DNA of 10,628 bases. It comes from Elusimicrobiota bacterium (GTDB lineage: Bacteria; Elusimicrobiota; Elusimicrobia; JACQJN01). Both the position numbers and the translations under genes were made by a program. The stretch covers positions 1 to 10,628 of the forward strand of contig JACQJM010000147.1 of NCBI GenBank assembly GCA_016205045.1, in the 5' to 3' direction. The notes below the pieces were generated by a model, which ran no database searches, was not told where the DNA came from, and worked only from the letters and a program-made list of their open reading frames with translations. Shown here piece by piece: positions 685-10,628 of the stretch (position 1 is its first letter; the number at the start of each line of letters is the position of its first letter).

Positions 685-3591
685 TCAGGGTGTTATGAGT
701 TTTATGACCTTGACGATTATCTCGGTACAGATTCCCCCGATACCAGTGAAAAAGCTGATCAGTCCGATTTGAGCTGTAAAATATTGGAGGATGTATCCCT
801 TCCCACCAAGTATAGATCGGCCACTAATTATGAAGCCTGCAATGAAAAGTAATACTGAAACCCACCAATGTGTTACAAGGGCCACTCCGACTCCGAGAGG
901 AATGCCTGTAAGAAGAGGGATGAGGAAGAAAGGAGGGATGAGGTCGAAAAGTTCTACGCTGCCGCGCTCGGGATTTTTGTAAATTCCCGAGCGGGCCATG
1001 GAGGCGTCTCGAATGTATTCCGTAAGGTCGAAAGGTAATACACCTCCGAAGGCCCAGCGTACGGTCGATTCTGTGTCCGGTCGCGGCTGAAGCGCATAGG
1101 TTTCAGTTGTAGGGGAATAGCGGTAGACGTTGCCTTGGGCGTCCACGTTTAAATATCTCCGGGTGGTTGTGTGTTTATAGGAATAAATGACCGTCCCATT
1201 GGTTTCTGTCTGGCCCATGAGCATAAACCAATGCCTGAGACCCCTGGGAACAAGTAGTTCTAAGGGGTACCATTGGGGGTCACTGCCCAGATTCTGTTCT
1301 CCAAATCTTCCCAGTTTTCTCTTCAAAGCATCGAGTTCTGGATTGGGACGAAAAGGACCCATAAGTCCTAGTGAGATGGGCAGTAGGCTTCCTGCTCCAG
1401 CGTGGTGAGGGGCCAGAAGGGAGAAAAAGGAAGTAATTGCCTTTTGGATATGGGGCCACAAGAATATTGCTAAGGCGATTATTCCGAGGATGGCTAAAAC
1501 CTCGATGAGCCAATAGACAACCGTCCCACGCTCAGCGTTCTTGTAGATTCCCAGATGGGTAAGGATTTGTCGGATCTTTTTGAAGGGCCAAGATAGAATC
1601 TCACCCACCACGCCAAGTCCTGCGATTGCCATAATAGCCAGCAGGCCGAACAAAGAAGGACTCCCCACTCCGGCTTGGGAGATAGGTCGGGAAGTAAGGA
1701 GAGCCTGGAATTGGGAGATGGGGTCTGATTCGACAGGGTACGAAAAGGCGTAAAGAATGGTCACAAGCGCTCTGAGTAGTAATGTGAAGAGTACCGTGTA
1801 GATGCTGAGCTTTATGATTCTGCCGGCTTTCTCCTGAATTCTCTTGGACCTTCCTTTAACCCTTACTGCTCCAGAGGCTACGCCCACAACTAAAAACACC
1901 GCAAACAAACTGGGCAGGTATATAGGGCTTGTTCCCAGAATACCCCCAATAGCAAGGGCCGTGAAGTTCCAAGGATTCTTTAGGAAATTAAAAGTGATCG
2001 CGAAGATGTTGGGTTTAGGGACATAGGCCTCCATGTCTATCATGACAATGGTGTCTTCCGTGGGCAGGGGAATTTCGGAGACTTCTACCAGGGTGCGCTT
2101 TGGAAAAGGGGCTTGAAAATATTCTCTATAGACTTTCTCGAGCCCCGCCTTATTCGCGGCCATATCTTTTATGGTTATGGTTACGTCGGCCACATCTTTA
2201 AGACTGCCTCCCGCCGCTTTTAAAACAGCCTTGAGATTTTCTAAAGCTTGTCGGGTTTGTGGTTCAATGCCTCCCGGCACGACTTCATCTGTTTCTGGGA
2301 TATTTCCTGTTTGTCCCGATAAAGTGACCCGAATATTTTTTTGGAGATCGACGGCCACAGCTTGGCTATAGCTTCCTGGAGGTGGAGCCTTCTTTGTTTG
2401 GATGGTTGTGTGTCTTGTGGATACTGGAGTTATTTTATTCTTGCGGCGTTTAAAATCATTGAGTAATTGAAAAAATCTAGTACTGGAAATATTTTGAAAG
2501 GTGAACCGGCCGTCCGGACTGATAATATAGGGCGATTTTTCAGCGCTCTCCACTGCAGAATTGGCAAAGCGAGATAGGGCAGCTCCCGCTTTTTCTGCCC
2601 AACGCCGGATGCTGGATTTTGTCAAATCTGGAAATTGTCGTTGTAAGGCCAAGAGTTCAGTCCTGGTACGCTCTTCTGCCGCCTCCTCGTTGGGCTCTAA
2701 TTTCCTAAATCCATATTGAATGCCTGGAAATGGAGTGACGGTGGGACTAGGAAGTGCGTGTTTGTCTGCGTATGTTGCCAAAATATTTTTTAGATGCCTG
2801 ATCTTTTTTTGGGCTTCCTCGCGTGAAATGATGGTTGGTACGATGACAGTTGTTTCTATTCTTGTAGGAGGTGGCTGAATTTCTGCGGAGAAGGGGGTAC
2901 GCCTAACGGGGCCGGAAATAGGTTCCCCGCGAAGGCCAAAATCGTCAAAGCGTGGGGCGGCATTCACGATGAGAGCTTTTTTAAGTTCCGCAACTTTTTT
3001 TTGGGCTTGCGCGCTTATTTGATGAACTCCGGGGCCGTATAGATCAAGGCTTCTGGTCTGATCTTGAAAAGCCTCCCAATCGGCCAGACTGTGATGATTT
3101 GTGATCATTCCATTCAGTTTCCCACGGACAAACTCTTCTATATGGGGAACCAGGATTTGATAGGTTTGTAAAAACTCTCTTCCTAATTCTTCTTGTTTTT
3201 CAATGGGAAGTTCATTGATGCGCTCGAGATCAGGAAGATGTTTTCGATTCAGGGCGAAGGCGAGGGGTCCGAGAGCTTCTAAGTCATTAGGATTGTTAAA
3301 CCTAAAAGTCTGAAGGTTAGCTAAGTTAGGCGCCTGTACTAGAATATGGGAGATGACGGGGTTGCTGATATCGAGCAGAAAAGTCTTTAGGCTTGCCAGG
3401 GCATTGAGAGTGGTTGCCGGGGCCGGTGCAAATAGAGGAATGCGCTGCCCAAAGGGTATTCCAGAGTTGCCCGAACTTGAGGCCGCCGCCAGGGCACGAG
3501 TGACCTCAGGCCCCAGGGTGGTGATGAGGAGGGATGTTATTAAGAGAGCAGAAATTTCCTGCTTCAATCGCAATAAACCGATTTTTTTCAT
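685..3591 (-). CDS. 968-aa exported multi-pass membrane protein with an internal RidA/YjgF (enamine/imine deaminase) domain. It is a paralog, in its N-terminal part, of the upstream 1391-aa protein. The family is unknown.
   Basis: Long ORF with a GAGGA ribosome-binding site 8 nt upstream of the ATG. The N-terminal signal peptide is MKKIGLLRLKQEISALLITSLLITTLGPEVTRALAAA, with an AxA-type cleavage site. Residues ~402-525 align along their whole length with RidA/TdcF. The conserved pieces are GSYSQAV, LSGQ and QTRQALENLKAVLKAAG, followed by a PKRT motif carrying the arginine and then LVEVSEIPL. From ~aa 528 to the C-terminus there are about 8-10 hydrophobic helices. A ~130-aa soluble loop sits between them. 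The motif GIYKN[AP]ERG[TS]V occurs twice. Confidence 0.85.
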   Translation of the reverse strand: MKKIGLLRLKQEISALLITSLLITTLGPEVTRALAAASSSGNSGIPFGQRIPLFAPAPATTLNALASLKTFLLDISNPVISHILVQAPNLANLQTFRFNNPNDLEALGPLAFALNRKHLPDLERINELPIEKQEELGREFLQTYQILVPHIEEFVRGKLNGMITNHHSLADWEAFQDQTRSLDLYGPGVHQISAQAQKKVAELKKALIVNAAPRFDDFGLRGEPISGPVRRTPFSAEIQPPPTRIETTVIVPTIISREEAQKKIRHLKNILATYADKHALPSPTVTPFPGIQYGFRKLEPNEEAAEERTRTELLALQRQFPDLTKSSIRRWAEKAGAALSRFANSAVESAEKSPYIISPDGRFTFQNISSTRFFQLLNDFKRRKNKITPVSTRHTTIQTKKAPPPGSYSQAVAVDLQKNIRVTLSGQTGNIPETDEVVPGGIEPQTRQALENLKAVLKAAGGSLKDVADVTITIKDMAANKAGLEKVYREYFQAPFPKRTLVEVSEIPLPTEDTIVMIDMEAYVPKPNIFAITFNFLKNPWNFTALAIGGILGTSPIYLPSLFAVFLVVGVASGAVRVKGRSKRIQEKAGRIIKLSIYTVLFTLLLRALVTILYAFSYPVESDPISQFQALLTSRPISQAGVGSPSLFGLLAIMAIAGLGVVGEILSWPFKKIRQILTHLGIYKNAERGTVVYWLIEVLAILGIIALAIFLWPHIQKAITSFFSLLAPHHAGAGSLLPISLGLMGPFRPNPELDALKRKLGRFGEQNLGSDPQWYPLELLVPRGLRHWFMLMGQTETNGTVIYSYKHTTTRRYLNVDAQGNVYRYSPTTETYALQPRPDTESTVRWAFGGVLPFDLTEYIRDASMARSGIYKNPERGSVELFDLIPPFFLIPLLTGIPLGVGVALVTHWWVSVLLFIAGFIISGRSILGGKGYILQYFTAQIGLISFFTGIGGICTEIIVKVIKLITP
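2017..2388 (-). other. RidA/YjgF/L-PSP family domain embedded within the 968-aa CDS
   Basis: The translated segment APPPGSYSQAVAVDLQKNIRVTLSGQTGNIPETDEVVPGGIEPQTRQALENLKAVLKAAGGSLKDVADVTITIKDMAANKAGLEKVYREYFQAPFPKRTLVEVSEIPLPTEDTIVMIDMEAYV matches E. coli RidA/TdcF motif by motif: the Tyr of GPY, SGQ, Q-R-SLDNVKAIVEAAG, and PARS-VEV with its Arg. Confidence 0.8.
3484..3526. repeat. Nucleotide-level repeat shared by the 5' coding ends of the two giant genes. The partner copy is at 7719-7761. Identity is about 79% over 43 nt, with a 16-nt exact core ggccccagggtggtga.
   Basis: Aligned by eye. On the minus strand the repeat encodes the conserved TTLGPE[VF]TRALAA signal-peptide block in both genes. 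Confidence 0.7.
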
Positions 3592-3644
3592 AGATTAAGT
3601 TCCTCTGTAGAAACCCATTGGATATTGCAGTTTTGATCCAATCT

Positions 3645-6600
3645 TTACTTAATGCCAGTTTTATCTTGAAGTTTTTTGACTTGTTCCTTCAAGGTTTTTA
3701 TTTCTTCTTGCGTATTAGAATCATCTATAACAAGAAAGAATGTTGCCACGGGCCCAAGTAAGAGAGACACCAAAAACCAGTTGAAACCCGAACGCCCCTT
3801 ACCTTGTGCGATACCTGCATTGATTAATGACAGAGTCCCCCAGCCTACTGTGAAGCCATTTAGGGAGGTGCCATTCTCAGCTAAAGCTAAATGAGGAAAG
3901 AGTGATATTCCTAGAGCAGATAAGAGGAGTGTGAGCAGTAGAAGTACTCCCATTTTTACTGAACCTCTTTCAGATCGGGCTTTGGCTATTTGGGTTTCCA
4001 AATCTGAATCGATCTTTGCATCGACCCAGTTAGATTCCTGGTTTCTGCGGGAGGCTACTTCTTTCTCCACAGCCTGCAGGGTACTCAACACGGGAGCGAA
4101 CCCAGTTCGGGCGCTGGACCCATTATTGAATAGATTGGAAAATAACCCAAACAAAGGAGGGAGAAGCAAGTCCATGAACATTCCGTTTCCAGCATCAACG
4201 GAACTGCCAGCATGCCCGGGCAGAGCCGCGCCTAGATTTTCGGCTTTGATGGTTTCATCGTTCTGTAGAGCGGTGATCATAGGGCGCAAAGATTGTAGTC
4301 CCGCATTAGCGGCAGAAGCCTCAGATTGTGCTGCAGAAGCTTCTGAGGCCGCTAAGGCTCTGTACATTCCGCTGTGATCCTCATAAGTGATGGAGGTATT
4401 ACCTTTAGAGTCTGTGTGGGTTACCGGAACATTGGTGTTCATGGCGGCCATGGCCAAGTAGGATGTTTCGCTGTTTCGATGAGAAATCATGCTGTCGATA
4501 TGATGGTCGATTTCACGTGCCAAATCAGCAGCGGGCTTAAGTTTCTCATTAAATAACGTGCTGAGCCGGTCTAGATGGTCGCGGTGTGTCTTGAACTCCC
4601 CACTTTGTGCATATATTTTGTCGCTGACCCGTTTGCGCATGGCGCTGTTGAACCTATCATATAGGGCTTCTTCTGTAACGATGTCTGTCTTTTCAAATCC
4701 TTCTAGTTCTGCCTGAGTTTTCTTGGATTGCTGACCCATCTTTCCTTTAAAGAGAGGAGGAATTTTCTTGACAAAGTTTGCGATGTTCTCTGCGATTGTG
4801 TTGGCGGTATTATTTTCCTGATCAATTTCGGCCGCAAAGGATTTGAGCAGTAAGGCCAGAGAGCCTTCGAAACCTGTGCTTACAGCAGGGGCTTCTTTCT
4901 GAGTCAGTTCAGATTCCCAGATTTTAGAGAGTTTCCCCCCGATGCGCGAACCACTGTCTTCAGAAACGGTATTTTCATTGAGGTCTGCTCGTGCGGCCAC
5001 TAGAAGATCAAAAGCAGCATAGGTTTCTGCTAGTTTAACAGGGTCCTTGGTGGCATTGTCCACTCGCTTTGCTTTAGATGCTTTGGCTTGATCTAGGGCT
5101 ACGGTCATTCTTTTGTGACGGGCTCTGGCTTGTTCGCCAATCCGATCCAGAGCGGAAGCATTATTAGCTTGTTGGGCCTCTTCGATGCGCACCATATCTG
5201 CCGCGCTTTTGGATTTTTTCCAGACTTGGTTTTTTCTGGAGGAGTAGTAATAAAATCCAGCCAGAGTGATTCCTCCCGCAAGTACTACCGCGGCGGTGAT
5301 CAGAGCCCAAAGAGGGAACTGGCTCAAGAAGCCGGTCTGAAAGAGACTATTAGCAGGTTCGGACCAGCCATCTAAGGCATCTGCCACGGCGGTTTTGAAA
5401 TGGAATAATGTTCCTAGGGAGGATAAGAGGAGTGTGAGCGTCAACAACCCTTTCACTTTCCCCGATTTTCCTCCGGGTTTGGTTTCTGGTTTTTGTTTAT
5501 TCTTTCTGTCCAGGTAGGAGTGGTGAGATTGATGCACAAAAGCAAGTCCTAATAGGATGGCGGCTAGGAAGGCCAGTCCGATGATGATTCCCGCGCCCTG
5601 GATTGAGAAGCTGGAAGCTGCGGCTTGAGTCAGTAATTCCGAGGCATGGGCCGGGGTGGGGTTGAGAATAACCCGAACAAGGACGGCAATCGTGAATGTG
5701 GAGAGGGCGTAATTCCTCGTATCTTTTAGAATTTCATCGGCGTCTTTTATGAAGTTTTGGGAATTCCACGAGGGCAGAACAGGTAAGATCACCAGGAGAG
5801 AGGAGACGGCGAGAGTCAATCCAGTTGCCAACAAAAAAATCCCAACGGAGGAAAGAGGAAGCATTCCAAGAAGCGCACCAACGACGAGACTGCTTACACC
5901 CAGGTGTGTTTTGTAGAAACTGCCGACCGAATTCAAAACGGACTGGACCGGCGGATGATATTTTCTGTATTCCTGAGCTGTTTTTATTCCTCTCTCCAAC
6001 AGGTCGATACCATATTTTTTAAAGGTCTTTAAGGCTTCCTGGTCTTTAACCGTGGTTAGAAATTGAATTGCCAAAGGATTATCTTCCAGGGCTACAACCA
6101 ATACCGAAGAAATTCTTTTTAATCCTGTTTTGGTTCCATTCCAATCGACAAGTTCCTCATCTACTCTTTGTCTTAGTTGTTCCAGGCTTTGGGGGTCTCC
6201 AATTTCCAAGAGAGCTTTTACAGCATCGAGTGTGTAGTATAGGATCATCTCATGCTTCTCTTGATCTATGAGATTCAGGATGGGTTGAGCGAGTTTGGGA
6301 TTTTTGAGTTTTGCCGCTTGTTTGATAGCGCGTTGTTTTTGTTTTACAGAGGATTTTTCATCGGTAAGCGTGGCAATTAATCTATCAAAAGATTTAGCAT
6401 CCCAGTTTGCGAAAATGAAAAGAGCGGTCATGCCTGCAGCGATCATGCCTGCCACGAGTGCTAGGCTTTCTAAGGAACTCGTAGCGGGAACCAAGATTCC
6501 ATTGTCTTGGGCGGCCGAGCGGGACGGAAAGATCAATTGTGTGATACCTTGAACCAAGCCCATCGTAAGAAATAAAGAGAACCAACCCCGAAATATGTTC

Positions 6601-7820
6601 CCTGGTTTGGGGCGGGGTCTAGTCTCGGATGCCGTTTTTGAGTCAGGTTCTGGAGTAGGAGGACTTGTCGCTTGGCTCGTTTTAGGATGGGCATTGCTGC
6701 GGACAAAAGTCTTTCTGGCCCAGTCGCGCACCCTTGAGGTCCAGCTAGGAGGTTTCAAGCCTGGATATCGGGTTTCCAGTTCTGCTTTTTCCGACTCTAA
6801 TTCCTGGATGCGTTGCAGAGAGCGTTTACCGCTGACCCGGGATGGGCCTATCCTATCTAAATATAAGGAAACTCGAGTGTCGCGAATCCGTGCCGCTTCA
6901 GCCATTTTCAAGTAGGAGAGACTTTCCGTGACTTCTCTGTATTTTTGAACGGCATCCAGGGGAATCGTTTGAGGGGATGACAGATTTTTTACCGGCTCTG
7001 CAGTGCGAAGATTATCTAGAGTTTGGCGACGAATACTCCTTTGTAAAGGGTCAACGATCCCACCCAACCCGGGGTTAATGCGTCCACCCTCATTGACCAT
7101 GTCCATAGACCCTGTTGAACCGTCATCTGACCCTGTGTGCCCTGGGGCGATGGCTTGGGTGGTGCGTTCCATGGAAGCGGTTGTGGCTTCGCTCCTCATT
7201 CTGGAAACTGTTATTTTCACCGATTGGGCCAAGTCAGAAATAATAGAGCCTTTAGGGGAGAGATCCTTGGGGTGGGCAAAGTACATCAAAAGACCGCTGA
7301 GTTGGGAATCTAACTGAGTCAAATCAGTTAGGGCGTGTTCCCGGGCTTTGTACTCTTGGTCACGGGCAGAGATAGCTTCTTCCATGTCAGGGGCAGCAGC
7401 TTTGGCGGCATCTTCCAGTGTTTCTAATATTTTTCCCTGTTTATGAGAGTCGAACGTGGCGATGCGATCTAATTCTTGGCGGAATTTTCTAGGAAGATGA
7501 GAAATTAAAGGAGCTATGACAATGCGTCCTTCCTGGTAGTAATTTAATCGGGCTAGAGGAGCAATGAAGGGATACCGGACTTGTAGTTCTTTGCCAGCGG
7601 GTGAGTTTAAGAATGGCACGAGGTGCTCCGCAAAACTCTGGCCCCATCCCTTGGAAGCGGGATCAAACAGAGGTCTTCCGATGGACAGGGGAGCGGCTCC
7701 CCCTGGATTGGCGGTAACCGCTGCCAGGGCCCGGGTAAATTCCGGCCCCAGGGTGGTGACTAAAAGAGCTACTGACAGAATAATGGAGAGTGATTTTTTG
7801 GTTAGTTTGGAATAGTTCAT
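3645..7820 (-). CDS. 1391-aa exported giant membrane protein. It has a signal peptide, a coiled-coil-rich soluble N-domain of about 400 aa, several clusters of transmembrane helices, a HEAT-like helical repeat region and long charged coiled-coil segments. It is a paralog of the 968-aa protein. The family is unknown.
   Basis: Uninterrupted 4.2-kb ORF. An AGGAGA ribosome-binding site lies upstream of the ATG at 7820, and the gap from the HTH gene's stop codon is 20 nt. The N-terminus MNYSKLTKKSLSIILSVALLVTTLGPEFTRALAAV, followed by PLSIGRPLFDPA, matches the 968-aa protein's LLITTLGPEVTRALAAA and IPFGQRIPLFAPA. Both proteins have a KP(G)NIF motif at the transition into the TM domain. A TM module is duplicated internally (LLLLTLLLSALGISLF versus LLTLTLLLSSLGTLFHF). 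Confidence 0.85.
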   Translation of the reverse strand: MNYSKLTKKSLSIILSVALLVTTLGPEFTRALAAVTANPGGAAPLSIGRPLFDPASKGWGQSFAEHLVPFLNSPAGKELQVRYPFIAPLARLNYYQEGRIVIAPLISHLPRKFRQELDRIATFDSHKQGKILETLEDAAKAAAPDMEEAISARDQEYKAREHALTDLTQLDSQLSGLLMYFAHPKDLSPKGSIISDLAQSVKITVSRMRSEATTASMERTTQAIAPGHTGSDDGSTGSMDMVNEGGRINPGLGGIVDPLQRSIRRQTLDNLRTAEPVKNLSSPQTIPLDAVQKYREVTESLSYLKMAEAARIRDTRVSLYLDRIGPSRVSGKRSLQRIQELESEKAELETRYPGLKPPSWTSRVRDWARKTFVRSNAHPKTSQATSPPTPEPDSKTASETRPRPKPGNIFRGWFSLFLTMGLVQGITQLIFPSRSAAQDNGILVPATSSLESLALVAGMIAAGMTALFIFANWDAKSFDRLIATLTDEKSSVKQKQRAIKQAAKLKNPKLAQPILNLIDQEKHEMILYYTLDAVKALLEIGDPQSLEQLRQRVDEELVDWNGTKTGLKRISSVLVVALEDNPLAIQFLTTVKDQEALKTFKKYGIDLLERGIKTAQEYRKYHPPVQSVLNSVGSFYKTHLGVSSLVVGALLGMLPLSSVGIFLLATGLTLAVSSLLVILPVLPSWNSQNFIKDADEILKDTRNYALSTFTIAVLVRVILNPTPAHASELLTQAAASSFSIQGAGIIIGLAFLAAILLGLAFVHQSHHSYLDRKNKQKPETKPGGKSGKVKGLLTLTLLLSSLGTLFHFKTAVADALDGWSEPANSLFQTGFLSQFPLWALITAAVVLAGGITLAGFYYYSSRKNQVWKKSKSAADMVRIEEAQQANNASALDRIGEQARARHKRMTVALDQAKASKAKRVDNATKDPVKLAETYAAFDLLVAARADLNENTVSEDSGSRIGGKLSKIWESELTQKEAPAVSTGFEGSLALLLKSFAAEIDQENNTANTIAENIANFVKKIPPLFKGKMGQQSKKTQAELEGFEKTDIVTEEALYDRFNSAMRKRVSDKIYAQSGEFKTHRDHLDRLSTLFNEKLKPAADLAREIDHHIDSMISHRNSETSYLAMAAMNTNVPVTHTDSKGNTSITYEDHSGMYRALAASEASAAQSEASAANAGLQSLRPMITALQNDETIKAENLGAALPGHAGSSVDAGNGMFMDLLLPPLFGLFSNLFNNGSSARTGFAPVLSTLQAVEKEVASRRNQESNWVDAKIDSDLETQIAKARSERGSVKMGVLLLLTLLLSALGISLFPHLALAENGTSLNGFTVGWGTLSLINAGIAQGKGRSGFNWFLVSLLLGPVATFFLVIDDSNTQEEIKTLKEQVKKLQDKTGIK
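3908..3936. repeat. Intragenic direct repeat inside the 1391-aa gene. The partner copy is at 5411-5439. Identity is 26/29, with an 18-nt exact core gataagaggagtgtgagc.
   Basis: Read from the sequence. On the minus strand both copies encode a poly-Leu TM segment (LLTLLLSALG versus LTLLLSSLG). This indicates an internal module duplication. Confidence 0.7.
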
Positions 7821-7840
7821 GATTTTTTCTTTTCTCCTGG

Positions 7841-8023
7841 TTAATTAACTTCGGTCAGGTACTTCTCAATGGCCACTTGGGAAATTTGGTACTTTCGGCC
7901 GAAGCGCTTCGCCTGGAGTTTACCCGATTTGATGTACTCGTAAATGGTGGCGGGGCTAACCTTGAACTTCTTGGCGAGGTCTTCTACCGTGTAAAACGTC
8001 AAATTGCCTATCGCGATAGACAT
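7841..8023 (-). CDS. 60-aa helix-turn-helix DNA-binding protein of the excisionase family (HTH_17 / AlpA-Xis-like, MerR superfamily). It is the first gene of the minus-strand operon.
   Basis: The sequence MSIAIGNLTFYTVEDLAKKFKVSPATIYEYIKSGKLQAKRFGRKYQISQVAIEKYL fits the excisionase-family HTH pattern: xTveEaAxxLgvSxxTIYrlIrsGxLxAxKxGRxxrIxxxxLxxYL. An AGGAGA ribosome-binding site lies 6 nt upstream of the ATG. The giant gene starts 20 nt after its stop. Confidence 0.8.
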   Translation of the reverse strand: MSIAIGNLTFYTVEDLAKKFKVSPATIYEYIKSGKLQAKRFGRKYQISQVAIEKYLTEVN

Positions 8024-8061
8024 GGATGATCTCCTGCTTAACTTAATTCAGTTAGGTTATG

Positions 8062-8067
8062 AGTATA
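8062..8067 (-). promoter_or_regulatory. Candidate -10 element TATACT for the minus-strand HTH operon, about 40 nt upstream of the HTH ATG
   Basis: Hexamer read from the sequence on the minus strand. No strong -35 element was found. Confidence 0.3.
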
Positions 8068-8145
8068 TTAAAACCGCTCAGCACAGGCATGAGTCCTTTA
8101 GGGTCGTCAGAAGTTGGTAAAAGACCTACGAAATCCTTAGGAAAA

Positions 8146-8168
8146 AGGACCTGGATATCCTGGGTCCT
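8146..8168. promoter_or_regulatory. Near-palindromic operator-like site AGGACC-TGGATATCC-TG-GGTCCT
   Basis: Inverted AGGACC/GGTCCT arms flank a central GGATATCC palindrome. The site lies in the divergent intergenic region. Confidence 0.45.
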
Positions 8169-8216
8169 TGGGGTTCTAAAATTTCGTGGGACTTGCATGG
8201 GACCTAGATCATACAT

Positions 8217-8263
8217 AGGACCTTAGGGTGTGGGGCCCAAATTTGGGATAGGCCCAAGGTCCT
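8217..8263. promoter_or_regulatory. Composite nested palindrome. An outer inverted repeat AGGACCTT...AAGGTCCT encloses a perfect 12-bp palindrome CCCAAATTTGGG (8236-8247). GGCCCAA direct repeats are also present.
   Basis: Read directly from the sequence. The outer arms at 8217-8224 and 8256-8263 are exact reverse complements. The inner palindrome is almost concentric with them. Further GGGAC(C/T)T copies lie at 8188-8205. Confidence 0.5.
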
Positions 8264-8265
8264 AC

Positions 8266-8295
8266 ATATCCACATAGGGGATAACCTGTGGATAA
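8266..8295. promoter_or_regulatory. DnaA-box cluster. It has ATATCCACA (8266-8274, 8/9 match to TTATCCACA), GGGGATAAC (a partial GGATAA half), and a perfect box TGTGGATAA (8287-8295, the reverse complement of TTATCCACA). An AT-rich tract follows.
   Basis: Direct match to the established DnaA-box consensus TTATNCACA. The boxes are in head-to-head arrangement. Flanking AT-rich sequence ctttaaaacatggcttttaatgtaaataatgcaaaaaatt follows. Confidence 0.5.
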
Positions 8296-8349
8296 CTCTT
8301 TAAAACATGGCTTTTAATGTAAATAATGCAAAAAATTAGGGAGATTCTG

Positions 8350-8378
8350 TTGCCTTGAATACCGAATTATGCTAGGAT
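8350..8378 (+). promoter_or_regulatory. Candidate sigma70-type promoter for the SPFH/M28 operon. It has -35 TTGCCT (8350-8355), a 17-nt spacer, and -10 TAGGAT (8373-8378).
   Basis: Hexamers and spacing read from the sequence. The position is about 30 nt upstream of the GGAGG ribosome-binding site and the ATG at 8408. Confidence 0.35.
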
Positions 8379-8407
8379 GACCCATCAAGTAGAAGTAGGA
8401 GGTCCTC

Positions 8408-9178
8408 ATGGCTGACATTTTTCACTTTTTCGGAGTTTCTTCTCCCTTCGTCCTCATTGTTCTTTTCATTGTGTTCAGTGCTATTAAGATCCTCAATGAG
8501 TATGAGCGTGGTGTCGTGTTCACTCTGGGGAGATTCACGGCGGTCAAAGGACCGGGACTGGTTTTGGTGATTCCCGGCATTCAACAGATGACCCGGGTAG
8601 GATTGAGGACGTTAGTTCTGGATGTGCCTCCTCAGGACATCATTACCCGGGACAATATATCCGTCAAGGTGAATGCGGTGGTGTATTACCGAGTGATCGA
8701 TCCAGAAAAGGCCATCATCCAGGTGGAGAACTACCACTACGCCACAAGCCAGCTTTCTCAGACCACGTTGAGGTCGGTTCTGGGACAACAGGAGTTAGAT
8801 GACCTTCTGGCCAACCGGGAGAAGATCAATGCCAGCCTTCAACAAATTTTGGACCAACACGCGGAGCCTTGGGGCATCAAGGTCTCCAACGTGGAGGTGA
8901 AAAATGTGGACCTGCCTCAAGAGATGTTGCGGGCGATTGCTCGGCAGGCTGAGGCGGAGAGGGAAAGAAGAGCCAAGATCATTCATGCGGAAGGAGAATT
9001 CCAGGCTTCTCAAAAGCTGGCGGACGCTGCTCAGATCATCACCAAATCCCCAGGAGCCATTCAACTGAGGTACCTCCAGACGATGACAGAAGTGGCCGGG
9101 GACAAGAGCGCCACCATCATATTTCCCTTCCCGATTGATCTGATCCAGTTGTTCTTAAACAGGAAAAATGACAACTAG
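8408..9178 (+). CDS. SPFH / Band-7 domain membrane protein (stomatin-like, QmcA/YbbK-type slipin)
   Basis: A GGAGG ribosome-binding site lies 5 nt upstream of the ATG. The N-terminus has a TM helix, [23 protein letters not shown]. It is followed by a typical SPFH core ([16 protein letters not shown]...[50 protein letters not shown]...). A C-terminal coiled coil follows ([30 protein letters not shown]). Confidence 0.93.
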
Positions 9179-10541
9179 AAAGAGTTCCCTAGTTTTAGGT
9201 TTAAGTGCTTTGTTTCTTATCTCCACTCGCTTGTCCTGGGCTCAAGTGGGAAGAGTTAAGGCTGATATCCCCGTCATTCCCAATCCTGTTATTGTTCCAG
9301 CCATCCAGACTCTTCCACCACTCAATTTTCCTCAGCCTCCTGTGACGGCGTTAAGTATTTCCGCATCGCGACCCATGTCTACAGTTCAGTCTATCCGGCC
9401 TCTGGCTCCTACCGCGAGGGTGAGGGTTCCAGCACGACCGTCGCCTGTGATGCAGTCGGTCGGTCATGAAATGGCGGCATTCCAGGGGATTCCTCCCTCT
9501 AATTTAGGAGACCGTTCGGGGTCCCTAAATCGCTTCTACTCCGGCTCGGGTTCCACGGGGCAGCCCCCTTCGGGGCCCGTGGGAGGTTCTTTTAAAGATT
9601 CTATTGAGTCTTTCGTGGAGAAAGCTAAGAGGCGTTTTTATCCCAAGCTCTCTCCTGGCCGAGAAGCTCCTGTTTTTATCCCCGACGCTCTTTTTCAAAC
9701 CGAGGGAGTGCCTACGGATGAGGAAATTCAAAAACGTGTGGAGCTTTCCCCTCTTAGCAACGAAGAAAGATTTAAGGCCATTCGACAAATTTATCTGGAT
9801 GCAGGCGCTAAGCCCGAACAGATGATCGCACAAAAAATAGGAAATCGCGAGGCCTATAACCTGATCGTGACCAAGCCTGGCAAGACGGATCGGGTGATCG
9901 TGATCGGAGGGCATTACGACAAAGTCCGCGCGGGCAAAGGCACCATCGACAACTGGACCGGGGCGACCATGGTGGCCAATGTATTTCAGGCCCTGAAAGA
10001 TGTGGAGTTGGAACACACCATCGTTTTTATGGCGTTTGGGTTGGAGGAAGAAGGAATGGTAGGGTCGAAATATTATGTTCGCAGCCTTCCGAAAGACCAG
10101 TTAGCCAAAATCGATAGAATGCTGAACCTAGACACCATGGCGGTGGACGGCACTTTCTCTTGGCCCAATGGCTCGGATCGGCCTCTCTTAGATCTGGCCA
10201 TAAAGGTAGCCCAAGAGGAAAAATTGGCTCTTAAAGAGCAGCCTCTCTCGGGAGGAGATAGTGATCAAACCAGCTTCCGCAGAGCAGGTGTTCCCGCCAT
10301 GATGCTCTATGGCGCTTCCCCTAGTGTCATCTGGGATATTATTCATACAGACAATGACAACATTGCTGCCTTTTCCTTGCCGCATTATAAAAACGCCTAT
10401 TTATTGTCTCGAGCGTTAATGCTGGCGATGGATAGATTGCCCAACCGCCCTGCATCCCTTGTCTTGGATGGGTTTTTGGAGGCTCCACTGAATCCCTGGT
10501 GGCTCCATTTCCTTACTTCTCCCAGACCTTCTCAACCTTAA
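9168..10541 (+). CDS. Secreted M28-family zinc metallo-aminopeptidase with a signal peptide and a ~160-aa proline-rich N-terminal linker
   Basis: An AGGAAA ribosome-binding site lies 4 nt upstream of the ATG. The ATG overlaps the SPFH stop by 11 nt (ATGACAACTAG). The signal peptide is [25 protein letters not shown]. The M28 motifs are GGHYDKV (His249), GTIDNWTG (Asp261), [13 protein letters not shown] (Glu293/294), NLDTM (Asp322) and IIHTDNDN (His393). All five zinc-ligand positions of the family are therefore present. Confidence 0.9.
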
Positions 10542-10558
10542 TATATTCCTATCCTATT

Positions 10559-10628
10559 CATGGCTTCTCATTTTTTTTCAGAAGGCTCAGCTAGTCGAGC
10601 GGAATCCGGCAAGCAGGGCCGTCCGGAG
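10559..10628 (+). CDS. Possible start of a further plus-strand CDS (MASHFFSEGSASRAESGKQGRPE...) running off the window edge
   Basis: ATG at 10559 with the frame open to the window end. There is no convincing ribosome-binding site, and only 23 codons are visible. Confidence 0.2.

Follow-up and report, generated by a model that had tools for sequence, protein, structure and literature searches.

An overlapping slipin-M28 aminopeptidase gene pair, a lineage-specific gene-order variant in two uncultured Elusimicrobia

Known SPFH-protease systems and the slipin-M28 pair

The classic case of a protease organised by an SPFH cage is the HflK/C-FtsH system, in which the catalytic domains of FtsH lie across the membrane from the cage. 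Stomatin-like SPFH proteins of prokaryotes, the slipins, typically have NfeD as partner. In Pyrococcus horikoshii the slipin PH1511 is paired with the NfeD1b-type protein PH1510 (STOPP), and in Escherichia coli the SPFH1a protein QmcA and the short NfeD protein YbbJ form a cage complex seen by electron cryo-microscopy (Tan et al. 2024, as cited in PMC12478178), the SPFH domain of QmcA facing the cytoplasm (PMC10434171). An operon with NfeD is common and not universal: it was found for 229 of 353 SPFH1 genes, and SPFH1 occurs without NfeD1 in 50 genomes (Hinderhofer et al., PMC2636767). An earlier note on the DNA analyzed here, which had slipins almost always occurring with NfeD, was thus right about the typical partner and overstated how regular the association is. 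The physiological role of prokaryotic stomatins and NfeD is largely unknown, and if a second peptidase, an exported one, were linked to them in a conserved way, this would be a clue to a substrate pathway. We analyzed a slipin gene that overlaps the gene of an exported M28 zinc aminopeptidase in a metagenome-assembled genome (MAG) of an Elusimicrobiota bacterium (GCA_016205045.1). The window is the complete 10,628-bp contig JACQJM010000147.1, and gene content was judged within that contig. Both genes encode ordinary members of known families, and their pairing is confined to the window contig and one sister MAG (GCA_016205085.1). It is a lineage-specific gene-order variant and not a conserved scaffold-protease system.

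The slipin gene (8408..9178, 256 amino acids, SPFH1b type) and all features of the pair described below lie on the plus strand. Its product has the make-up of an ordinary prokaryotic stomatin: N-terminal anchor, SPFH domain, and hydrophobic motif near the C-terminus. The stomatin-like identity that had been proposed for it was confirmed by a Band_7/SPFH domain (PF01145, E = 3.5e-40, 138.4 bits against a cut-off of 23.6; envelope amino acids 28-197, 8489..8998) and by matches to solved structures, namely human stomatin (E = 1.9e-70, amino acids 20-254), PH1511 (E = 2e-64) and QmcA (E = 1e-39). A protein identical to it is annotated as 'slipin family protein' in an Elusimicrobia MAG. Exact-sequence look-ups of the two window proteins gave no entry, and the homologue searches a 100% match for each. 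The N-terminal hydrophobic membrane anchor (about amino acids 4-30, 8417..8497) stands out with 19-residue Kyte-Doolittle windows of 1.7-2.45 over amino acids 1-33, and there is no other such segment in the protein. No positive charge precedes the anchor and K27, R34 and R42 follow it; the positive-inside rule and the analogy to QmcA predict an N-out, C-in orientation with the SPFH domain in the cytoplasm. The conserved C-terminal hydrophobic motif, common to human stomatin (amino acids 236-250, 9113..9157, from the alignment to stomatin 9oh9), has IIFPFPIDL aligned with IVFPLPIDM of the human protein and is also seen in the C-termini of Elusimicrobia slipin orthologues. At the sequence level the protein has every stomatin/slipin feature tested, except the usual NfeD operon.

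The M28 gene (9168..10541, 457 amino acids) encodes, as proposed, a predicted zinc aminopeptidase; domain, zinc-site residues and fold agree with this. The catalytic domain (amino acids 231-412, 9858..10403) matches Peptidase_M28 (PF04389, E = 4.9e-28, 98.6 bits against a cut-off of 21.3). H249, D261, E294, D322 and H393, the presumed co-catalytic zinc ligands by what holds for M28 enzymes in general, and E293, the presumed catalytic Glu, are invariant in 21 homologues, and the predicted dizinc site is therefore intact. In the solved structure 9oqa, the M28 domain has counterparts of the motifs GHYD, DNWTG, EEEG and NLD in the alignment. In the AlphaFold2 (AF2) model the predicted local distance difference test (pLDDT) score of the catalytic domain is mostly above 90, and the top Foldseek matches (E ~1e-15 to 1e-13, probability 1.0) are the aminopeptidases SGAP (Streptomyces griseus, 1cp7/1qq9), BSAP/YwaD (Bacillus subtilis, 6hc6), AAP (Vibrio/Aeromonas, 1amp) and LapA (Legionella, 6ica). 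These enzymes share the fold and the co-catalytic zinc motifs with the window protein at 17-25% identity in the fold-search alignments, and all are exported by a signal peptide. In contrast to them, the Elusimicrobia family adds a disordered Pro-rich linker of ~120 residues and a conserved N-terminal extension of 85 residues.

The signal peptide and long Pro-rich linker that had been read from the sequence were likewise borne out, by the sequence itself, by the homologues and by the AlphaFold pLDDT. The Sec-type signal peptide (amino acids 1-25, 9168..9242) consists of MTTRK, a hydrophobic core and the cleavage-type site SWA/Q. It is modelled as a helix at residues 2-22, and a signal peptide is present at the N-terminus of all 20 aligned homologues. 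It has no lipobox Cys and is too short and too weakly hydrophobic for a transmembrane anchor, and no 19-residue hydrophobic window in the whole protein reaches 1.6 on the Kyte-Doolittle scale. Because there is no window of transmembrane strength and the site is of the cleavage type, the protein is probably released to the periplasm or the medium as a soluble exopeptidase. The low-complexity Pro/Ser/Gly-rich linker that follows (amino acids 26-145, 9243..9602) has 16.8% Pro over amino acids 27-145 and a pLDDT below 50 for residues 24-142. Its length and sequence differ among homologues, with non-conserved, indel-rich alignment columns, and the model has it disordered. The family-specific extension (amino acids 146-230, 9603..9857), directly ahead of the Pfam M28 domain, has A153, D184, P195, E200, R201, G213 and A214 invariant in the homologue alignment, and is modelled as partly ordered helices. 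The search returned 132 homologues, mostly from Elusimicrobia where the source is named. Judged from these sequences, the family is mainly one of Elusimicrobia and consists of predicted exported dizinc aminopeptidases with signal peptide, linker and catalytic domain.

The two reading frames, 8408-9178 and 9168-10541, overlap by 11 nt (ATGACAACTAG, 9168..9178), as had been noted, with the M28 ATG placed within the final slipin codons K-N-D-N-stop. In the window and in the sister MAG alike this ATG is embedded in AAA-AAT-GAC of the slipin end, and the sister shows ATGACAATTAG at the equivalent position. A misannotated M28 start had been raised as a possible weakness, and the call of ATG 9168 was upheld. 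It is the sole start giving a signal peptide, which the next in-frame ATG (M70) or GTG (V27) would remove, and the sister protein begins with MTIRK from the same embedded ATG where the window protein begins with MTTRK. The overlap is therefore real. The same junction in an independent assembly of a different organism, at 77% nucleotide identity over slipin and 70% over M28 (86% and 57% at the protein level), shows that it is not chimeric. Slipins without an M28 neighbour end in ...FLKRKEN-stop (e.g., L002) or ...FLKKNQN-stop, and those of the window and the sister in ...FL(N/K)RKNDN-stop. The slipin gene has a strong Shine-Dalgarno sequence AGGAGG (8397..8402, 5 nt 5' of its ATG, GTAGGAGGTCCTCATG), and a weak AGGA lies 3 nt before the M28 ATG. 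No terminator was found between the two genes in a consensus promoter/terminator scan of 7800-10628, in which the counts were not above those of shuffled sequence. The overlap is the presumed site of termination-reinitiation coupling.

Compared with PH1511-PH1510 and other nfeD1b-slipin pairs, to whose slipin the window protein is a close relative (the E-value given above refers to the PH1511 core), the window pair is alike in having a protease gene adjacent to slipin on the same strand. It differs in several ways: the protease gene lies downstream whereas that of NfeD1b lies upstream, the neighbour is a dizinc M28 exopeptidase whereas NfeD1b is a ClpP-like serine protease, the M28 protein has neither a multi-pass membrane domain nor a C-terminal OB-fold, and the linkage is not conserved. 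QmcA, like the window slipin, has a single N-terminal anchor and the orientation that is predicted for the window protein from its charges, but it is more distant from the window slipin than human stomatin is, and YbbJ, with which it pairs, is no peptidase but a small membrane protein. With the HflK and HflC models the window slipin scores 83.6 bits (cut-off 159.4) and 51.3 bits (cut-off 134.4), far too low for membership, and whereas FtsH is an integral membrane AAA+ protease, the window M28 protein would have no anchor once its signal peptide was cleaved. A defence-system reading was also considered and rejected: neither slipin nor M28 had a match in PADLOC.

Distribution of the pairing and usual neighbours of both genes

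We collected M28 loci by scanning GTDB genomes, one per species, on the basis of an alignment (79 loci), and slipin loci by scanning metagenome contigs (80 loci). A slipin gene lies within ~6 kb of the M28 gene in one of the 79 M28 loci, that of the sister contig (L008, identical to L001), and none of the 80 metagenomic slipin loci contains M28. In the sister MAG, which carries the closest slipin (P0002, 86% identical), the order is slipin-M28-radical SAM gene-valS, with overlaps of 11 nt between slipin and M28 and of 19 nt between M28 and the radical-SAM gene, which is hemW (TIGR00539, 278.6 bits). The next slipins in similarity, P0003, P0004, P0006, P0008 and P0031 (73-77% identity), all five have hemW directly after slipin and no M28, and the four next-closest M28 proteins, from other assemblies (P0123, P0125, P0127 and P0134), have no slipin alongside. 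Where 1.2 kb or more of sequence follows slipin (54 loci), M28 comes next in one locus (L001), hemW directly in eight and another gene in 45; in the tally output L001 was counted under hemW, since hemW follows its M28. The conserved SPFH-M28 linkage that had been envisaged was thus not found.

HemW directly after slipin, often followed by valS, was seen in every Elusimicrobia-type slipin locus examined, with variable genes farther away (L002:1564-6181, L005:6001-7928, L169:793-5455, L170:61-1961, L171:10001-11916, L087, L089-L094). A genuine slipin-hemW operon was considered and set aside, since terminator-like hairpins stand between the two genes in L170 and L171; the adjacency may be one of synteny.

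NfeD lies directly upstream of slipin in 37 of the 49 loci with at least 1.2 kb of upstream sequence, and in six of these 37 the NfeD1b_N, NfeD_membrane and NfeD C-terminal domains were confirmed with Pfam. The slipin orthologues linked to NfeD1b are 63-74% identical to the window slipin. Outside the Elusimicrobia-type loci the orthologues thus have NfeD1b as neighbour, and inside them hemW. The earlier note had named a pairing limited to this genome, with orthologues elsewhere beside NfeD, as grounds for refutation, and the distribution observed essentially agrees with that, one sister MAG being added. In agreement with the earlier observation that NfeD is missing beside the window slipin, no NfeD domain or tblastn match was found within the 10.6-kb contig, where the upstream neighbour is a divergent helix-turn-helix (HTH) gene.

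The M28 gene is labile in its context, with at least seven different ones. Upstream of it lie an ATP-grasp protein gene (20 loci), nfeD1b (seven loci), lepB (two loci), hemE/hemH, or genes of AsmA-like, YwiC, MerR and other proteins. In the commonest neighbourhood the upstream gene encodes a protein of 1100-1700 amino acids with a membrane N-terminus and an ATP-grasp/L-amino-acid-ligase C-terminus, and downstream there are one or two proteins of 800-1000 amino acids with signal peptides and Ala/Pro-rich stretches and without a Pfam match (20 loci, among them L031:15-9186, L034:2254-12139, L037, L044, L045 and L053). This hints at a usual role of the M28 family in some peptide-ligase-related pathway.

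In most of these contexts the M28 gene stands alone and appears to carry a promoter of its own, in the form of a strikingly conserved block. TAnnnT occurs at most 22 nt from the M28 ATG in 47 of 60 upstream regions, and 33 of the 47 have a TGn extension. The typical promoter-like block is GGGCCCTTCGG-(about 25 nt)-TGgTAGACTcgggccATG. Written through to the start codon it reads GGGCCCTTCGG-(about 25 nt)-TGnTAGACT-cgggcc-ATG; it is found ~60 nt upstream and ends 6-10 nt before the M28 start (L011, L020, L022, L025, L029-L048, L053, L054, L057, L062, L066, L167 and L173; e.g., L031:5428-5490). Because the block lies so near the ATG, the M28 mRNAs of many Elusimicrobia are probably leaderless and independently transcribed. 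The window and the sister MAG have no such block ahead of M28; in this lineage the M28 gene has lost its promoter.

Explanations for the pairing

We consider it probable that the slipin-M28 pair goes back to an operon capture that was incidental, has been inherited stably and leads to co-expression. Since hemW follows slipin in the relatives without M28 and the sister MAG has the order slipin-M28-hemW, the M28 gene would have been relocated by insertion between slipin and hemW in the common ancestor of the window MAG and the sister. This ancestor is not very recent, given the divergence of the two at the nucleotide level and in the M28 protein. After insertion, M28 would have lost its own promoter while its ATG came to lie within the last slipin codons, and it would now be transcribed from the slipin promoter and translated by termination-reinitiation at ATGACAACTAG. 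This mode of translation is the most likely one because M28 has the weak AGGA alone whereas slipin has the strong AGGAGG. The expression mode of M28 would thus have switched from an own promoter to that of a translationally coupled distal cistron. Promoter loss and coupling support co-expression with slipin and do not by themselves imply a physical partnership. The exported M28 protein, its signal peptide cleaved, would be soluble in the periplasm or outside the cell and the SPFH domain of slipin would be cytoplasmic, so placed that a specific physical partnership is not expected. On this evidence the pairing reflects a local change of gene order in two uncultured Elusimicrobia, is no general system and does not belong on the list of SPFH-protease modules. 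It is of modest value as an illustration of how a gene that usually has a promoter of its own, probably a leaderless one, comes to be captured as a translationally coupled distal cistron. Of similarly modest value are the split nfeD-slipin operon in Elusimicrobia and, as a lead on NfeD1b, the adjacency of nfeD and M28 in seven genomes.

Several points weigh against an incidental capture. The exact overlap has been kept despite divergence to 57% amino acid identity in M28 and 86% in slipin, which would fit selection for co-expression. For a client that lies mostly across the membrane from the SPFH cage there is a precedent in FtsH-HflK/C. Moreover, in seven other Elusimicrobia genomes (L010, L014, L015, L016, L017, L051 and L064) an M28 orthologue lies directly downstream of, and on the same strand as, an nfeD1b gene with all three Pfam domains. 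By a rough back-of-envelope estimate, with ~14 neighbour slots and a genome assumed to hold ~2000 genes, the chance of M28 and NfeD meeting in this way is ~0.01.

On these points one can argue that M28 is a functional associate of a slipin/NfeD1b membrane-proteolysis module and is drawn beside either partner depending on the clade, possibly to trim peptides released by the ClpP-like NfeD1b or by signal peptidase. In its most specific form, M28 would be a third player of the slipin-NfeD1b module, an exported exopeptidase acting after signal peptidase and the SppA/ClpP-like endoprotease NfeD1b, and recruitment of the gene would have been independent beside nfeD in one clade and beside slipin, with translational coupling, in the window lineage. 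We hold the general association to be possible though improbable, and the third-player version to be doubtful; if true, the latter would be the first functional handle on what stomatin-NfeD systems process. In favour of an association, the nfeD stop and the M28 ATG are 34-119 nt apart in five of the seven loci, the M28-linked NfeD proteins are 43-46% identical to the slipin-linked NfeD1b proteins and keep the invariant S107 and K155, slipin is unlinked from nfeD in these Elusimicrobia, and the slipin-M28 overlap has persisted as described. The seven loci have in common a conserved block lepA-lepB (signal peptidase I)-nfeD1b-M28-(histidine kinase, opposite strand)-HAD hydrolase (L014:944-8229, L051:1646-8586), of which lepA-lepB-nfeD-M28 forms a thematically coherent envelope proteolysis set. 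Other observations speak against an association. The M28 promoter-like block sits inside the nfeD-M28 spacer of L014, L015 and L017, and the two genes could therefore be neighbours without forming an operon. In the close relatives L012 and L013, lepB is followed by M28 with no nfeD between them. In the M28 tree the seven genomes largely share a single region, from which L051 is separate, and they may reflect a single ancestral juxtaposition followed by synteny. The largest M28 class, 20 of the 52 testable loci, lies behind the ATP-grasp gene with neither partner near, and of the 53 slipin loci with a match to NfeD not one contains M28. We found no published functional link between NfeD and M28, and no mention of stomatin in Elusimicrobia in the literature.

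A descent of these arrangements from an ancestral nfeD-slipin-M28 operon that left a slipin pseudogene was rejected, as the inserts of 1.36 kb that separate nfeD from M28 in L010 and L016 have no SPFH similarity even at E <= 10; nor is one insert related to the other. The canonical nfeD-slipin operon is split in Elusimicrobia, with nfeD beside an M28 orthologue and slipin elsewhere beside hemW.

Very unlikely, in our judgement, is the proposal of the earlier note, taken strictly, that M28 is the protease of a new SPFH-scaffolded system, in which it would have replaced NfeD as the enzyme organised by the slipin microdomain, in a scaffold-client relation like that of HflK/C-FtsH or stomatin-STOPP. 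The absence of NfeD from the 10.6-kb contig and the general lack of an adjacent NfeD at Elusimicrobia slipins agree with it, as does the fixed-ratio co-expression that the translational overlap implies. NfeD1b is, however, present elsewhere in related Elusimicrobia genomes, unlinked from slipin, and the lack of an adjacent NfeD therefore does not mean that NfeD was replaced. The known SPFH-protease pairs have a conserved linkage, a membrane-integral protease and a partner-binding domain. Here the pairing is found in two MAGs, the M28 protein has no transmembrane segment beyond a signal peptide that looks cleavable (SWA/Q), and it has no NfeD-type OB-fold (no PF01957 match). The SPFH domain is predicted to be cytoplasmic, as in QmcA (PMC10434171), and M28 to be exported. 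A relation of the HflK/C-FtsH kind would need an anchored M28, and nothing points to anchoring; a scaffold-client relation between slipin and M28 is unlikely.

That the pair is an artefact, a miscalled M28 start or a chimeric assembly of unrelated genes, might be suspected from a short MAG contig and the weak, close AGGA ahead of the M28 ATG, and is extremely improbable in view of the diverged sister assembly with the same junction and of the signal peptide, common to all homologues, that any start after 9168 would lose.

Surroundings of the pair in the window

Downstream of the pair, 19 nt after the M28 stop, a further open reading frame begins (MASHFFSEGSASRAESGKQGRP..., 10560..10628, plus strand), which is cut by the contig end. 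The HemW motif GLYxHxPFC, which falls within the first ~10 to ~25 residues of HemW, is absent from its 22 visible residues, and at the nucleotide level the end of the window does not match the sister contig. Gene order after M28 may thus differ between the window and the sister MAG.

Upstream, a minus-strand block (685-8023), which is no part of the slipin-M28 unit, starts with a gene for a 60-amino-acid HTH_17/excisionase-family DNA-binding protein (7841..8023, minus strand; Pfam HTH_17 E = 5.9e-14, NCBIfam 'excise' E = 2e-10), which also matches PADLOC mad1, and continues with multi-pass membrane proteins of 1391 and 968 amino acids. These two have ~180 N-terminal residues in common at 29% identity. 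The 968-amino-acid protein has an embedded RidA/L-PSP domain (amino acids ~395-511), the same region that matches PADLOC PD-T4-2_B. No homologues of the block were found in any of the loci compared, and the 1391- and 968-amino-acid proteins were rejected as counterparts of the ATP-grasp or 'C2' neighbours of M28, since tblastn gave no match in any collected locus. The block may be an inserted island that replaces the nusB seen upstream of slipin in several related loci, L002 and L087 among them.

The divergent intergenic region between this block and slipin (8024..8407, 384 nt, no strand assigned) is the presumed location of the slipin-M28 promoter. Reading the sequence by eye, we noted a putative sigma-70-type promoter (8350..8378, plus strand) made up of TTGCCT (8350-8355), 17 nt ending in TGc, and TAGGAT (8373-8378). 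It agrees with the consensus at eight of 12 positions, below the threshold of the scan, which did not list it, and is a plausible slipin promoter. Direct and inverted repeats of GGACC/TAGGNCC type (families D1-D5 and I1-I11) cluster at 8114-8271. Of the five TAGGNCC matches in the window, four lie at 8200-8264, and AGGACCT occurs four times as an exact site, always within 8146-8406. Such sites are absent from the regions upstream of slipin in 11 other cases from Elusimicrobia. The repeats may be operators for the HTH protein or for the slipin-M28 unit. The density of TAGGNCC, a heptamer related to the promoter-like block of M28, is per kb 5.5 upstream of M28, 1.4 in other intergenic DNA and 0.17 in coding DNA, and it is the most frequent of 180 composition-matched permutations. 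It is thus ~4-fold enriched over other intergenic DNA, clusters in some other intergenic regions too, and may mark a regulon.

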